DNA from: Octopus vulgaris
Lineage: Eukaryota
NCBI GenBank assembly: GCA_951406725.2
Contig: OX597823.1
Coordinates: 86,428,001-86,492,000, forward strand
Length of the DNA stretch: 64,000 bases
Reading direction: 5' to 3'
Shown here: piece after piece, positions 1,652 through 64,000 of the stretch
Numbering within the stretch: position 1 is the first letter of the stretch
How the letters are laid out: every line of letters begins with the position of its first letter
The notes under the pieces: model-generated
Told to the model about the DNA's origin: nothing
Databases searched by the model: none
The model's input: only the letters and a program-made list of their open reading frames with translations
Made by a program: the position numbers and the translations under genes

Positions 1652-2033
1652 AATCCAATAAAAATGGTAAATAATTTTTCTGTGGTTTTTCATATAACCA
1701 ACAATTATTTACCGGTAAATTTCGGTATGTAAATATGACAAATTCATCGTCAGGAACTTTGTAAGGTTCAGTATATAGTAAAACTAATAAAAAGGGCTAG
1801 CAACAGGCTGCTTCGCCGCATACCGAAGGAATTAGAAATGGCAGTCAAAGACTGTTTTTTCCATTTTCTTTAAGTGGAGATTCCATTTTGTGTATGTGAA
1901 CCGCAGGGTCCGTCGTTTTTGGAATCTCCACTTACAGAAAATGGCAAAAACAGTCTTTGACTGCTATTTCTAATTCCTTCGGTATGCGGCGAAGCAGCCT
2001 GTTGCTAGCCCTTTTTATTAGTTTTACTATATA
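1652..2033. mobile_element. Insertion between two (TA)n tracts with 114-bp inverted arms (1772-1885 / 1920-2033) and a degenerate outward-facing HHR (1702-1760, minus)
   Basis: The arms are near-perfect reverse complements. The minus strand has CTGACGA-TG...CC-GAA-ATTTACCGGTAAAT-A (14-nt palindromic helix III). Helices I and II are degraded. Confidence 0.7.
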
Positions 2034-2489
2034 TATATATATATATATATATATATATATATGTGCACACACACATACATATGTGTGTGAATTTGTGTGA
2101 GTACATGTGTGTGTGTGCTCAACCTTAGTGCTCAAGTGGTAATCCACTTTTTCGACGCCGAAATAATGAAATGCATATTCGAAAGAAGCAGAATTTGAAC
2201 TTAGATCCTAAAGCTGAATGAAATGTTGCTAAGCATTTTGTTCGACTTGCTAACTCTTCTGCTAGATTGCTACCTGACTGTCACTCATTATAATGAGATA
2301 ATACATAGCAAGGTTTTACTTAGGCCATCTTGAGTGTCCGTCGCATCCTTATTGTGATCCTAGCATATGCATGCATGTATCTATGCGACAAAACACTGTG
2401 CACTATTTACTCTGGTTTGTTAGAGTTGCCGCTACTCATTTCTTTTAATACTTTTAGTTCTATAAACTATAAACTGATGTCTAAATTAT

Positions 2490-2815
2490 TTGCCAAGCCC
2501 ATACATTTATCTATGTCCTTCGCTTCTTATGAAGTACAAACCATTGGCTTATGCTCGACTCTGAACTGTTTTTTCCGTTTCTTTTCAGTCTCACTATTCC
2601 ATCTCCAGCTAGTTTTAGGAAATGCTCTCTTCTGCCTCTCTTGTGGGTTTCAGGTTAGAACCTGACGTGCAATTCAGAATGTTGGTTTCCTTTTGGATTT
2701 TGCTGCATTATATCATATGTATATGAGCTGTTGCTATGAGAAGCTCTCCCACAAGCTTGCGTTTCACTGGCATAGATTTCAGGGTCGCTGAGGCATACAA
2801 GCCACTACTTCGCAA
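2490..2815 (-). pseudogene. RTE-clade LINE C-terminal remnant
   Basis: Minus strand GLYASATLK (cf. LLYGSETW) and QVLT*KPTRGRR...PKTSWR (cf. W.P.GKR.RGRP..SWR). Confidence 0.45.
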
Positions 2816-4010
2816 CAAGGACTGGAACTTGCGGTGGAAATCATACATTTTCAGTACTTGTTTCATCAAATTAGGAATGGTGAAAGAGAAAGTCATAGTC
2901 AACGACCGCAGGATTTGAACCTAGAATCATAATGAAATGCCGCAGGACGCTTTACCCGTCTCATTACCGATTCGGCTAATGTATTGCCTTCTATTAGTCA
3001 TATATAATCTATAAATAAATATACACGATTCTTTATTAAGTTATTAATTTTCGATTTATTTCTAAATCGGAGTAAAATACAAAACTGATAAATGCAGTAA
3101 TTATTTAATTAGTAAATTAGTTAATTTAGTTAATTAATTATTTTGTTTAATCTGTTAGCTCAACCAATCCTTTTTACTAAACGTACGTAGATTTTCCATT
3201 TTTACATTTAATAATTCACAAAGAATAGGACTATTATTCCAACTACCATAATCATAATTACATCTGCCTCTATAGTAGCTGAAGTTTTGTTTCTTTTGAA
3301 ATCATTTCCAACACCATTGTTATGATGTTAAATGACTTTATGTACAGACGATAAATATTGACCATACATCCTTTTCATAGCAGGAAATCACATATTCAAG
3401 CACGTGTCTTCGTGATGATTTCTCTATACAATGGCTTGCGATTATGTGTGAAACTTTACGTGCGATTTTCAGAAAATAACATTTTTTTTCCTCCGATATT
3501 GGAATGACCCTAAGAAACAGCGACCACACCCACGAAACAGAAAGAACGTGAAGTATTACAAAGGAAAACAAAAGAGATTTGATGCAAAGAAGAAAGTAAG
3601 TTATGATGTATACTAACATTGCAAAATGTAAAATCTATTATGCTTATGAAAAGCAAAATATCCTAGCAATCGTGTTAACGTGCTGTCAAGTGAATATTGA
3701 ATATTTCTTTAAATGAGTCTAGAAATATATGGCTAAATGTAAGTATAAAAGTTTATCAATAATATAAATAATACACCAAAATATGAGAACTTATATGTGA
3801 TACCAACATTTCAAATAGTAGTTGTCAGATATCTGAAGCGAGTGTTATATAAATAGACATAGTGAGTATTATATATTATATTTTTGTGAGCATTCATCCA
3901 GAAATATAATCTGATAAAAGGCGTAATAAATAATAAACAATAAATAATAAATAATACATGGAAACTTGATCAAATTACATGAATGTTAATAATATTTGTG
4001 TATTTATTTT

Positions 4011-5052
4011 AAGGCGGTGAGCTGTCAGAAACGTTAGCACGCCGGGCGAAATGCTTAGTGGTATTTCGTCTGCTGCTACGTTCTGAGTTCAAATTCCGCC
4101 GAGGTCCACTTTGCCTTTCATTCTTTCGGGGTCGATTAAATAAGCACCAGTTACGCTCTGGGATCGATATATAATCGACTAAATCCGTTTGTCTGTCCTT
4201 GTTTGTCCTCTCTGTATTTAGCCCCTTGTGGGTAGTAAAGAAGTGGGTATTTCGTCTGCCGTTACGTTCTGAGTTCAAATTCCACCGAGGTCGACTTTGA
4301 CTTTCATCCTTTCGGGGTCGATTAAGTAAGTACCAGTTACGCACTGGGGTCGATATAATCGACTTAATCCGCTTGTCTGTCCTTTTTTGTTGTTTCTATA
4401 TTTAGCCCCTTGTGGGCAATATAGAAATAAGAAACGTTAGCACGCCGGACGAAATACTTATAAGGGGGCGAGCTGGCAGAAACGTTAGCACGCCGGGTGA
4501 AATGCGTAGCCGTATTTCGTCTGATGTTACGTTCTGAGTTCAAATTCCACCGAGGTCGACTTTGCCTTTCATCCTTTCTGGGTCGATTAAATAAGTACCA
4601 ATTACGTACTGGGGTCGATATAATCGACTTAATCCGTTTGTCTGTCCTTATTTGTCCTCTCTGTGTTTGGCCCTTTGTGGCTAATAAAGAAACAGGCATT
4701 TCATCTGCCGTTATGTTCTGAGTTCAAATTTCACCGCGGTCGACTTTGCCTTTCATCCTTTCGGGGTCGATTAAATAAGTACCAATTACCTACTTGGGTC
4801 GATATAATCGACTTAATCCATTTGTCTGTCCTTGTTTGTCCCTTCTGTGTTTAGCCCCTTGTGGGTAGTAAAGAAATAGATATTTCGTCTGCCGTTACAT
4901 TCTGAGTTCAAATTCTGCCGAGGTCGACTTTGCCTTTCATCTTTTCGTGGTCGATTAAATAACTACCAGTTACGCACTGGGGCTGATGTAATCGATTTAA
5001 TTTCTTTTTTCTCCCATCTGTGTTTAGTCCCCTGTGGGCTATAAGGAAATAA
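4011..5052 (+). mobile_element. tRNA-derived SINE family A, head-to-tail multimer of about 5 units
   Basis: A-box-like GAGCTGGCAGAAACGTTAG and B box GAGTTCAAATTCC; core GCCTTTCATCCTTTCGGGGTCGATTAAATAAGTACCAG repeats about every 185-190 bp. Confidence 0.88.
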
Positions 5053-61813: not shown

Positions 61814-61920
61814 ATTTCTTATACGATGCACCGTTTCATCTACTGTTTAATGGTAAACTAACCTGATTAAATTAAATCAAGCCAATCTTCCATAGGCCCT
61901 TAGATTCCTCAGTAAGAAAT
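61814..61920 (-). ncRNA. Type I hammerhead ribozyme, inverted copy of 62672-62778
   Basis: Reverse complement of the plus-strand HHR, with all core nucleotides intact. Confidence 0.88.
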
Positions 61921-62671
61921 AGCCAGAACGGAACAGATATTTTCACGAGGCATTTCTGTCCCTGCCTCGGCAATATCTGACCTAAAATTTTCAAATCATC
62001 GCACTCGCGCCAAATTTATCGGCAGCAAATAAATATAAGCCGCCGATTCCATTACGGAATCAACCAGAAAATTCATAATTAATCAATATAGGGTGGCAAA
62101 AAAAAAAATTTTGTAGAATTTTTTTGCCACCAGCGGCCTAGTGGGAAAAAATTAAATAGTCATAGACCATTTATAAGTTCAACATCACAATCAAGGAGGG
62201 CCTATGGAAGATTGGCTTGATTTAATTTAATCAGGTTAGTTTACCATTAAACAGTAGATGAAACGGTGCATCGTATAAGAAATTACAGGGTAAATGTTTT
62301 TTAATTTTCTCCTGGTTTACGGAATTAATGTTATTTTGTGGTTGAAGCTTTGGCTGTTATTTCTAGTGGGTGAATGGCCTATTATGGCCGTTCCTTGATT
62401 GTGATGTTGAACTTATAAATGGTCTATGACTATTTAATTTTTTCCCACTAGGCCGCTGGTGGCAAAAAAATTCTACAAAATTTTTTTTTTTTTTGCCACC
62501 CTATATTGATTAATTATGAATTTTCTGGTTGATTCCGTAATGGAATCGGCGGCTTATATTTATTTGCTGCCGATAAATTTGGCGCGAGTGCGATGATTTG
62601 AAAATTTTAGGTCAGATATTGCCGAGGCAGGGACAGAAATGCCTCGTGAAAATATCTGTTCCGTTCTGGCT

Positions 62672-62778
62672 ATTTCTTACTGAGGAATCTAAGGGCCTAT
62701 GGAAGATTGGCTTGATTTAATTTAATCAGGTTAGTTTACCATTAAACAGTAGATGAAACGGTGCATCGTATAAGAAAT
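62672..62778 (+). ncRNA. Type I hammerhead ribozyme with canonical core and long helix II
   Basis: Helix I ATTTCTTA/TAAGAAAT (8 bp); core CTGAGGA at 62680; helix II ATCTA...TAGAT with internal extension ATTGGCTTGATT/AATCAGGTTAGT; GAAA at 62755; helix III ACGGTGCATCGT (self-complementary with G-U); GUA cleavage triplet ending at 62770. Confidence 0.9.
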
Positions 62779-64000
62779 TACAGGGTAAATGTTTTTTAAT
62801 TTTCTCCTGGTTTACGGAATTAATGTTATTTTGCGGTTGAAGCTTTGGCTGTTATTTCTAGTGGGTGAATGGCCTATTATGGCCGTTCCTTGATTGTGAT
62901 GTTGAACTTATAAATGGTCTATGACTATTTAATTTTTTCCCACTAGGCCGCTGGTGGCAAAAAATTCTACAAAATTTTTTTTTTGCCACCCTATATTGAT
63001 TAATTATGTATGTATGTATATATATATATATATATATATATGTATATACATACATATATATATATATATACATATATATTATACATTTATATAATCAATT
63101 CAAAAAGACATACACACATAATATACGGTTTGTATGCACGTATATATATATATATATATATATATATATATATATATATATAGGATTTGTATGAATGTCA
63201 ACATATGTACAAATTACTGTGGTACGTGTCTGGTGAATTTTGTGTCTCTGCCCACACACGCCTTCGTTGAAGTAGCTACGTGTTTGTGTACGTCATGTTA
63301 GCACTTTTCTTTTCTCTGTCTAAGAACAGGTTTTTGTGTTGCTGCCTAGAGATAATTAAGGTGGAGAAAGGATGAAGTAGAAATTACATTCACAGGAGTC
63401 TAATCATTTGCTTTTTGGTTTTGTTTTCCGTTCGTTTTTTTCCTGCCGTAAGTACATAGTGGATTATTTGAACCGAAAGTCAATGTGTCGCTTGTAAATA
63501 TATGCATTATGACGTGTCTGAAACACTAGGTAACGGTAGTAAAGGTGATGAATAGAAAACAGGAAAAGCGAAAACAACACAAATGGTTATAAACGAAAAT
63601 TTGTGTAAGTGGCAATTGCCATCTTTTCTATAAGTGTTTGTCTTTGCTCATTGACCAAAATCTTTCTGCAATCTATTCTGGGTTCTCTACTAACAAAAAG
63701 AAATACATGAATAAAAAAAAATATAAATATATATATCAATAAATAAAAATGAAAAAAAAAACGTGAATAATCGAAGGAAAACAAAATGGAAGGTAACAAT
63801 ACTACAATGTAACAAACTGCAACAAAAGGTTATAATGAAAACAAAAGAAGAAATAAAGAGAGGAAAAACAAAAGAATAAACTCATATAGTGTATAAACAA
63901 TATCAACATTGTTTAGTCATCGATATATATGTACTGAATTGAACTAAAGAAGTCACTGCTTACGACTTCTGGTCGTTAATTCGAGAAGTATGGGTGATCA

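Follow-up and report, generated by a model that had tools for sequence, protein, structure and literature searches.

The window analyzed here, a 64,000-nt stretch of Octopus vulgaris DNA, contains five local inverted duplications (1652-2033, 38712-39160, 49146-49759, 51125-51695 and 61690-63005) of unrelated sequence, which represent five families, denoted F1 to F5 (the best cross-family match has an E-value of 0.41). At all five loci, the boxes of the hammerhead ribozyme (HHR) are on the minus strand in the left arm and, where present in the right arm, on the plus strand, as the initial annotation had described, and each locus ends in or beside a TA-type or TC microsatellite. That observation as a whole is real in part: the places are correct, but one-sided tails were missed, with which locus 3 starts at about 49080 and locus 4 extends out to about 51846, and locus 5, while an inverted duplication, is not a simple palindrome but 507 inverted nucleotides plus 1.6 tandem monomers. 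The features are the following (signed numbers are distances of an element end from the predicted HHR cut; PLE, Penelope-like element):

1651..1886, minus strand: left arm of locus 1, F1 (monomer of 548 nt), with the long end (monomer position 55) directly against (TA)n at 1595-1652
1706..1753, minus strand: hammerhead-like boxes of locus 1, CUGACGA and GAAA with a palindromic helix III; no support for helices I and II
1885..2033, plus strand: right arm of locus 1, F1, with the short end (monomer position 481) directly against (TA)n
36259..38300, minus strand: sixth locus, single-armed 5'-truncated PLE, right boundary approximate
38681..38936, minus strand: locus 2 left arm, 3' end of the predicted autonomous PLE F2, including a 34-nt tail (long end)
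38774-38804, minus strand: locus 2 left HHR, helix II lost
38933..39161, plus strand: locus 2 right arm, F2, short end (+64), loopless center with a 4-nt overlap
39067-39098, plus strand: locus 2 right HHR, intact U3-A8 minimal type I
49080..49339, minus strand: locus 3 left arm, F3, long-type end at +104 (about +130 to +145 in most relatives)
49184-49259, minus strand: locus 3 left HHR
49326..49759, plus strand: locus 3 right arm, F3, short end (+38), extending further 5' than the left arm
49658-49721, plus strand: locus 3 right HHR, degenerate, GAAG in the core
51110..51368, minus strand: locus 4 left arm, F4, short end (about +70 to +85)
51195-51234, minus strand: locus 4 left HHR boxes, U4C variant
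51392..51846, plus strand: locus 4 right arm, F4, long end at +222, with a tail of about 140 nt past the initially annotated boundary
51581-51620, plus strand: locus 4 right HHR boxes, U4 changed to C at this locus
61691..62197, minus strand: locus 5 left arm, F5 (retrozyme-type monomer of about 490 nt), short end (+130)
61822-61912, minus strand: locus 5 left HHR, intact type I
62197..63004, plus strand: locus 5 right arm, F5, 1.6 tandem monomers, long end (+242)
62260-62275, plus strand: locus 5 right-arm half HHR, 5'-truncated
62680-62770, plus strand: locus 5 right HHR, intact type I, fold z -3.1

The right arm of locus 1 lacks an HHR because its short end sits 67 nt before the predicted cut. 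The sixth locus, absent from the initial list, contains RT and GIY-YIG remnants that are 39-57% identical to the F2 protein, as well as a U3-A8 HHR (36369-36398), and its 3' end is flush on a TA tract; it forms no fold-back.

A relaxed HHR descriptor yields five matches in the window compared to 0-1 in 10 shuffles; among the five loci, it recovers only the right arm of locus 2 and both arms of locus 5, and a strict descriptor recovers only locus 5, missing loci 1-4. One descriptor match (40709-40764) sits in an unrelated repeat and was taken as chance. Minimum free energy folding gives a significant z-score only for locus 5, with the other six values between -0.3 and -1.6, and an Rfam scan of the window includes no hammerhead family among the best 150 of 245 matches, which are almost all microsatellite-driven miRNA matches below the cut-off. 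An independent sample of 30 Rfam Hammerhead_1 loci bears out both the outward orientation and the (TA)n enrichment: an inverted partner is present in 7 of these loci, upstream in all 7 and downstream in none, and (TA)5 lies within 250 nt downstream in 14, against a background of 17%.

Locus 2 is the 3' end of a 4.4-kb PLE with a predicted RT and GIY-YIG nuclease. The copies L153 and L154 contain a 784-aa stop-to-stop frame in which the RT is followed by a C-terminal GIY-YIG domain; for the C-terminal frame of another copy, L151, Pfam search identified RVT_1 (E-value 0.001) and GIY-YIG (E-value 0.0002), both just under the curated cut-offs. The F2 protein has 497 homologs at E<=1e-30, many of which contain both domains; comparison with solved structures gave no match. 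L151 itself contains a 4412-bp unit in partial tandem, plus an inverted arm (ends +64/+98), and the F2 HHR shows the sequence pattern of a U3-A8 core with helices I and II of 4 bp each and helix III palindromic. F2 accordingly displays the defining set of EN+ PLE features, namely an RT+GIY-YIG ORF, a tandem or inverted pLTR with a one-sided tail, and a type I minimal HHR. A C-x4-C-x2-C motif precedes its GIY-YIG domain, and a CX2-5CxxC linker before the nuclease is described for the Neptune/Nematis clade of PLEs (PMC8557442). EN+ PLE insertions are known to include 5'-truncated copies, partial tandems and an inverted 5'-truncated copy at the 5' end, with a one-sided tail of 30-40 bp, a preference for (TA)n and an HHR in the pLTR (PMC8557442, PMC3846280). 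F2 is alike, down to the tail of exactly 34 nt and the RT-CxxxxCxxC-GIY-YIG order of the ORF, whereas the tails of F1, F3, F4 and F5 are about 100-145 nt long, and F1 differs also in that its two ends flank the ribozyme. The head-to-head layout, the outward ribozymes, the (TA)n targets and the one-sided tail are already published PLE features.

Loci 1 and 5 consist of tandem monomers (548 nt in F1 and about 490 nt in F5) of what can be classified as the retrozyme type. F5 arrays of up to about 5 monomers are non-coding, with a complete type I HHR pattern in each monomer, as in non-LTR retrozymes; the number of monomers differs arm by arm, each arm having its own, and 103 of the 106 HHR pattern matches have one intact core (overlapping loci were counted repeatedly). 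F1 forms 548-nt tandems as well, and the core boxes and palindromic helix III of the ribozyme initially proposed for locus 1 are there, but pairing of helices I and II fails both in the window copy and in the most frequent form of the family. Monomers within an array share one haplotype (the F1 comparison, of a single within-array pair, is uninformative), and the two families are spread over at least 1,400-2,500 candidate places in the genome. F1 and F5 resemble the non-LTR retrozymes (Cervera and de la Pena 2020, PMC7229834; Li et al. 2026, bioRxiv 10.64898/2026.07.22.740005) as non-coding dispersed tandem monomers with type I HHR boxes; their monomers are longer (490-548 nt compared to about 170-400 nt as described), and their arrays are found within both arms of young insertions whose ends are of the PLE type. 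A tblastn search of 120 loci, 1.5 kb on each side, detected no RT+GIY-YIG ORF joined to F1, F3, F4 or F5. Two candidates were rejected: in L144, a TA tract cuts the ORF off from F4, and the ORF near L145 belongs to another family. All five loci are insertions in TA microsatellites: one derives from a PLE (F2), and the other four come from RNAs that were likely mobilized by PLE proteins.

Each family has a fixed pair of 3' ends, located, from the predicted HHR cut, at -67/+53 in F1, +64/+98 in F2, about +35/+135 in F3, about +75/+220 in F4 and +130/+242 in F5. In family samples that comprise the 40 best-scoring candidates per search and are biased to young copies covering the query, the two arms carry one end of each kind in 17/17 two-armed copies of F2 (16 of 29 distinct genome insertions and the window copy; p 8e-6), 15/15 of F5 (of 20 distinct insertions) and 12/17 of F1 (of 27 distinct insertions); the remaining 5 F1 copies combine the +53 end with an off-site partner, and none has the same end twice. 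All two-armed copies of these three families are head-to-head; the lone tail-to-tail contact (L154) turned out to be two separate insertions, 8 nt apart within one TA tract. In the old families, one copy looks long/long (L098, F3) and one short/short (L138, F4). Single-armed copies are common, and those of F2 favor the short end 11 to 2, so that the two sites cannot be regarded as equivalent. The blind stretches, 400 kb in all, contain 8 non-SINE fold-backs with TA on both sides; 7 of these are flush with the TA (<=3 nt) on one side, while the gap on the opposite side is 45-163 nt.

The short-end arm extends further 5' in 7 of 16 F2 and 10 of 15 F5 copies (counted by hand), that is, in 17 of 31 copies pooled, compared to 14 for the long-end arm (p 0.72 against 1:1). 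Differences between the arms of a copy are below the between-copy median at 15/15 F1 and 14/15 F5 loci; for F2 this test is weak, with 8 of 16 rows not below the median. Each of the six end sites in F1, F2 and F5 terminates in AT or TA. Of 41 young two-armed copies, 31 have an uninterrupted TA run of 8 nt or more directly against each of their two ends. A search for target-site duplications, in flanks that are microsatellite, identified an informative 14-mer common to 4 of 41 flank pairs against a chance rate of 2.6% (p 0.02), with two of the four in already repetitive flanks.

These regularities bear on several explanations of the palindromes. That they are long-read fold-back or assembly artefacts might be suspected from locus 5, the arms of which are 99% identical, and no contig was found to span a center (the comparison covered locus 5 only, with short unitigs unable to bridge it). 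This suspicion is hardly credible given that arm-to-arm similarity is only 81-83% at loci 3 and 4, with a 3.5% difference at locus 1, that the unequal ends occur at family-specific positions repeated on many contigs, and that contigs from each of two independent short-read runs (X2, X6) show the short F5 end, with TA after it, as a loose end. Two separate back-to-back insertions in one TA tract, or host break repair at TA cruciforms after a normal insertion, would be in keeping with the reuse of TA tracts as landing sites (L154, L144) and with the higher density of such tracts in the window (15 per 10 kb compared to 9.5 in the blind stretches). However, at most centers the element sequences meet without an intervening TA tract, the arms are of one haplotype, and unique flanking DNA is not mirrored; the one-of-each ends at fixed element positions largely refute this very unlikely route.

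The palindromes could also be viewed as MITE-like, self-contained cassettes that move whole, with functional paired ribozymes, considering that a unit contains two ribozymes and that a palindromic helix III permits dimers (PMC4209133). Every mapped copy, however, has its own center, and fold-backs with the same ends exist without a detectable HHR in the arm. Moreover, the two ribozymes of a fold-back are on opposite strands, so that one transcript holds only one arm's ribozymes in sense, and locus 1 has just one. We consider this reading, already contradicted by these data, highly improbable.

In the literature, head-to-head palindromes of PLEs are explained by self-priming, in which one cDNA or, in the version of Arkhipova et al. 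2013 (PMC3846280), an antisense transcript folds and extends into a hairpin that an endonuclease trims and integrates. Arms of one haplotype agree with it, and so do near-perfectly symmetric centers in 4 of 17 F2 copies including locus 2 (both arms break within 11 nt) and the overlaps of 1-7 nt at 24 of 43 centers (a hand count of BLAST-end overlaps with no chance control). Most centers, however, are clearly asymmetric (one copy has arms of 1.9 and 2.8 kb, another of 2.7 and 0.2 kb), and the F5 monomer number is set separately in each arm. If a hairpin were processed with polarity, the further-reaching arm would be bound to a single end type, a tie that the observed 17 versus 14 does not show. 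Nor could a cDNA started at the short site gain the tail by folding back, which counts against this route. Fold-back is thus disfavored as the general route, and we regard it as unlikely. The near-symmetric centers of F2, at 4247, along with that of one F4 copy, at -226, in which both arms break at the same base, show more symmetry than independent truncation should give and may represent fold-back in a subset.

The one-of-each ends, the independence of arm reach from end type and the shared haplotype therefore favor two-site priming over cDNA fold-back. Probably, each locus was built at insertion by reverse transcription primed from both cut target ends at two fixed internal sites of one RNA, as judged from the end-products, in which 3' ends face outward on TA, 5'-truncated ends meet mid-locus and the arms are of one haplotype. 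The GIY-YIG nuclease would nick both strands of (TA)n, and each 3'-OH ending in TA would base-pair, over 2-7 nt, with AU-rich RNA at one site or the other; the two cDNAs would extend through the uncut ribozyme, halt at independent points and be joined end to end. The ribozymes would face outward only because they are sense-oriented near the 3' end of the element, and extension of one end only would give a single-armed copy. For F5, and probably F1, the template may be a circular or multimeric monomer RNA copied round several times. Of the two mechanisms initially offered, priming from both target ends is preferred, since roughly half of the copies do not fit a simple fold-back of the cDNA. The initial interpretation is partly supported, with PLE origin, outward orientation, microsatellite bias and a shared insertion mechanism all holding; the ribozyme itself is a passenger close to the 3' end of the element and does not bring about the fold-back.

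Two-ended priming has a biochemical counterpart in the protein of the Poseidon element PAc from the anole, which in vitro cuts and extends both strands of an AT-rich target, uses uncleaved RNA as template with two internal start sites bounding the tail, and is predicted to form a dimer (Frangieh et al. 2024, PMC11167929). In the accessible text of that study, the start site shows no difference between top and bottom strand and is called non-homologous to the target, one-of-each pairing is not reported, and the inverted arm is not derived from two sites; by contrast, the octopus sites end in AT or TA and can pair with a TA end, and we assign the inverted arm to the second site. How the inverted arms and tails of PLEs arise is described as unsolved in PMC8557442, and searches of the open-access literature found no model with one arm per site. 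What is new here, in comparison with the EN+ PLEs, is not the layout but the two fixed 3' ends per family, one of each per two-armed copy, counted in the present analysis along with their independence from arm length; published self-priming predicts a tie between arm length and end type, of which the octopus copies show none, and the young families supply exact priming coordinates.

In twin priming of L1, reportedly described by Ostertag and Kazazian in 2001, cDNA synthesis starts from each end of the target and the two products are linked in inverse orientation; the second primer is said to lie at a variable internal site and the two cDNAs not to overlap. In the octopus families, both sites are fixed and the cDNAs overlap, and therefore, unlike in L1, an inverted duplication results.

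For retrozymes, the accessible accounts go no further than proposing PLEs as candidate helpers, or have the tandems expand in place once inserted (PMC7229834; bioRxiv 10.64898/2026.07.22.740005), the argument having come from co-occurrence and phylogeny. The genomic evidence presented here suggests that PLE machinery integrates retrozymes, possibly from circular RNA. More tentatively, it is plausible that the PLE enzyme integrates animal retrozymes by two-ended priming on circular monomer RNA, with each target end at its own fixed site and reverse transcription round the circle, so that one event would yield two outward arrays of identical monomers; the PLE tail and inverted arm might then be two faces of one dimeric reaction, common to dozens of families and tens of thousands of loci in the octopus genome.

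The blind stretches contain 3 HHR-bearing fold-backs in 400 kb, compared to 5 in the 64-kb window, which is about 10 times richer. The genome-wide extrapolation from five loci per 64 kb was therefore too high, and roughly 20,000 such loci, not 200,000, are to be expected. In genome annotation, tens of thousands of such stumps can pass for MITEs, miRNA hairpins or assembly errors.

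Masked self-BLAST of the window (from an assembly of 2.80 Gb in 227 contigs) recovered all five of the head-to-head inverted duplications that the initial annotation had reported, and comparison of the five sequences with one another bore out the claim that they are unrelated. Each represents a separate repeat family:

1652-2033, locus 1 (F1)
38712-39160, locus 2 (F2)
49146-49759, locus 3 (F3)
51125-51695, locus 4 (F4)
61690-63005, locus 5 (F5)

The hammerhead ribozymes (HHRs) face outward, as had been described: all five left arms have their boxes on the minus strand, and four of the right arms have theirs on the plus strand. 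The extents first assigned to loci 3 and 4 fall short of the true length because a tail is present on one arm. The HHR of locus 5 is intact (two strict-descriptor matches versus 0.17 in shuffles; fold z = -3.1), and the right arm of locus 2 carries an intact U3-A8 minimal form recognized by the relaxed descriptor. Helices I and III pair in the left HHR of locus 3, the HHR of locus 4 has a U4 to C change, and neither a paired helix I nor a paired helix II was seen in locus 1. Hammerheads with a palindromic helix III are known from Penelope-like elements (PLEs; PMC4209133).

For loci 1-5, in that order, searches of the octopus genome yielded at least 1427, 694, 3136, 3418 and 2533 candidates at first look, totals that are lower bounds rather than copy numbers; for each locus, 40 candidates were scored and 30 loci retrieved. 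F2 corresponds to the 3' end of an element of 4412 bp, which encodes a reverse transcriptase (RT) and a GIY-YIG domain preceded by a C-x4-C-x2-C linker; a 784-aa frame is kept in two copies. F1 and F5 consist of tandem monomers of 548 and ~490 nt, respectively, and F3 and F4 are older families whose copies share 600-700 nt 5' of the ribozyme; no ORF joined to F1, F3, F4 or F5 was found in the sampled genome loci. The 5' truncations of F4 copies L121, L125/L128, L138 and L149 bunch at position -226, possibly an RNA 5' end or a stall site. For octopus, 31 PLE families have been annotated as recently active (PMC13282606).

Every family has two fixed 3' ends, each adjoining TA; the tail is the stretch between them.

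Fixed 3' ends (short/long), numbered from the predicted HHR cut
F1: -67/+53
F2: +64/+98
F3: about +35/+135
F4: about +75/+220
F5: +130/+242

Two-armed copies of F1, F2 and F5, in which 5'-truncated arms meet at the centre, are head-to-head and combine one end of each kind in 16 of 16 cases for F2 (29 distinct insertions) as well as in the window copy, in 15 of 15 for F5 (20 insertions) and in 12 of 17 for F1 (27 insertions), the other five F1 copies having an off-site partner. The F2 query halted short of both ends; the F1 and F5 queries contained the long end, which leaves the partner arm as the only unbiased one in those two families. The six mapped sites of F1, F2 and F5 terminate in AT or TA, and in 31 of 41 copies each end is bordered by a pure TA run of 8 nt or more; in young copies of the three families, the median length of the pure TA runs at both ends is 24-26 nt, and the RT might add TA to them by slippage, much as telomerase extends its repeats. 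An upstream inverted arm is present in 14 of 30 F3 loci (six F3 loci being copies of one duplicated segment) and in 10 of 30 F4 loci (two of them a single insertion), and an inverted partner mapped downstream in 0 of 30 loci of each family. Candidate same-end exceptions occur in these old families (L098 in F3, L138 in F4). Thirteen of the 29 F2 insertions are single-armed (copies in L230-L246), and because 11 of these terminate at the short end, the short site appears to prime first or more efficiently.

From these sequence patterns we infer that both ends of the target would prime reverse transcription on one RNA, one at each fixed site; the resulting cDNAs would continue across the ribozyme in its uncut form and would then be joined to each other at their ends. 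This reading is consistent with how an anole PLE behaves in vitro (PMC11167929). The arms overlap by 1-7 nt at 24 of 43 centres, a count without a chance control; target-site duplications were looked for in the flanks and not established. If a single cDNA folded back, the first-made arm would go further 5' and include all of the second, and a trimmed hairpin likewise predicts a reach bound to end type, but by hand count the tail-less short-end arm extends further in 7 of 16 F2 and 10 of 15 F5 copies. The four of 17 F2 centres that are symmetric within 11 nt may nevertheless reflect fold-back, or run-off at a common RNA end. Two independent insertions are largely excluded by the direct centres and by haplotypes common to both arms: the two arms of an insertion differ by less than the median between copies in 15 of 15 F1 and 14 of 15 F5 loci, but in just 8 of 16 F2 rows. 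Microsatellite variants flank L054 in inverted copy on two sides and a small mirror copy of the tail lies beyond the TA tract of L191 (2190-2320), hinting at strand switching within TA.

The 40 near-full F5 monomers are 2.1 substitutions apart within an insertion and 4.6 between insertions. Twelve variant columns are shared, and across them 9 of the 11 insertions with several monomers are uniform; of the other two, L013 differs in one column and L023 changes type once. Because the arrays sit within arms having exact outer ends, they were likely produced during insertion, and a circle or a uniform multimer would serve equally well as template. Retrozymes, together with a proposed connection to PLEs, have been described previously (PMC7229834; bioRxiv 10.64898/2026.07.22.740005).

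A genome search with Rfam RF00163 produced 30 loci of other families, some near-duplicates of one another, in which the predicted orientation and microsatellite enrichment both recur: all seven inverted partners lie upstream of the ribozyme (p 0.016), and (TA)5 is found within 250 nt downstream in 14 loci and upstream in four, compared with 17% at random positions. In 40 blind 10-kb stretches, the relaxed HHR descriptor gave 9 matches versus 0-1 in four shuffles, a rate of ~63,000 per genome (29,000-120,000). The same stretches contain eight non-SINE fold-backs bordered by TA at either end; seven are flush at one border and offset by 45-163 nt at the other. HHR sequence is present in only three of the eight, and therefore the layout does not require a ribozyme in the arm; the corresponding ~21,000 per genome (4,000-61,000), against 219,000 from the window rate, does not uphold the very large population extrapolated earlier. 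Other families, whose arms lack a type I HHR, show this fold-back layout with a tail on one side, and most of them are flush on TA (L190 7345-7632, L196 1618-1771 and L228 4516-4743; L191 1934-2189; L216 2809-3030 and L224 5423-5746); these possibly carry Naiad-type ends. Several more HHR families in L160-L189, with the canonical core CUGA[A/U/C]GA-GACCC...GGUCGAAAC, mostly terminate in TA at two distances.

The five loci are real, ordinary in layout and useful for mechanism. Earlier work on PLEs already describes 5'-truncated copies in inverted orientation, tails at one end and a preference for (TA)n (PMC8557442, PMC3846280), the second of these papers proposing a self-priming model; no paper assigning one arm to each start site turned up in our searches of the open-access literature.

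The window also contains a sixth ribozyme locus:

36259-38300, minus strand, single-armed 5'-truncated PLE with RT and GIY-YIG remnants, no fold-back
36369-36398, minus strand, its U3-A8 HHR (relaxed descriptor)

A repeat remnant at 40400-40800, with matching sequence in L215, L202 and L205, may resemble, in sequence, the end of an R2/NeSL-type retroelement that encodes the restriction-like endonuclease, and the HHR pattern within it (40709-40764) is probably due to chance. No HHR pattern was found in two old palindromes, 932-1294 (72%; a CA/TA tract adjoins its right side) and 41706-42001 (68%). An abundant SINE-like family, whose tandem units measure 184 and 449 nt and whose copies frequently form inverted pairs, occupies the following sites:

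4010-5001
14836-15254
25043-25414
52702-53117
54967-55775
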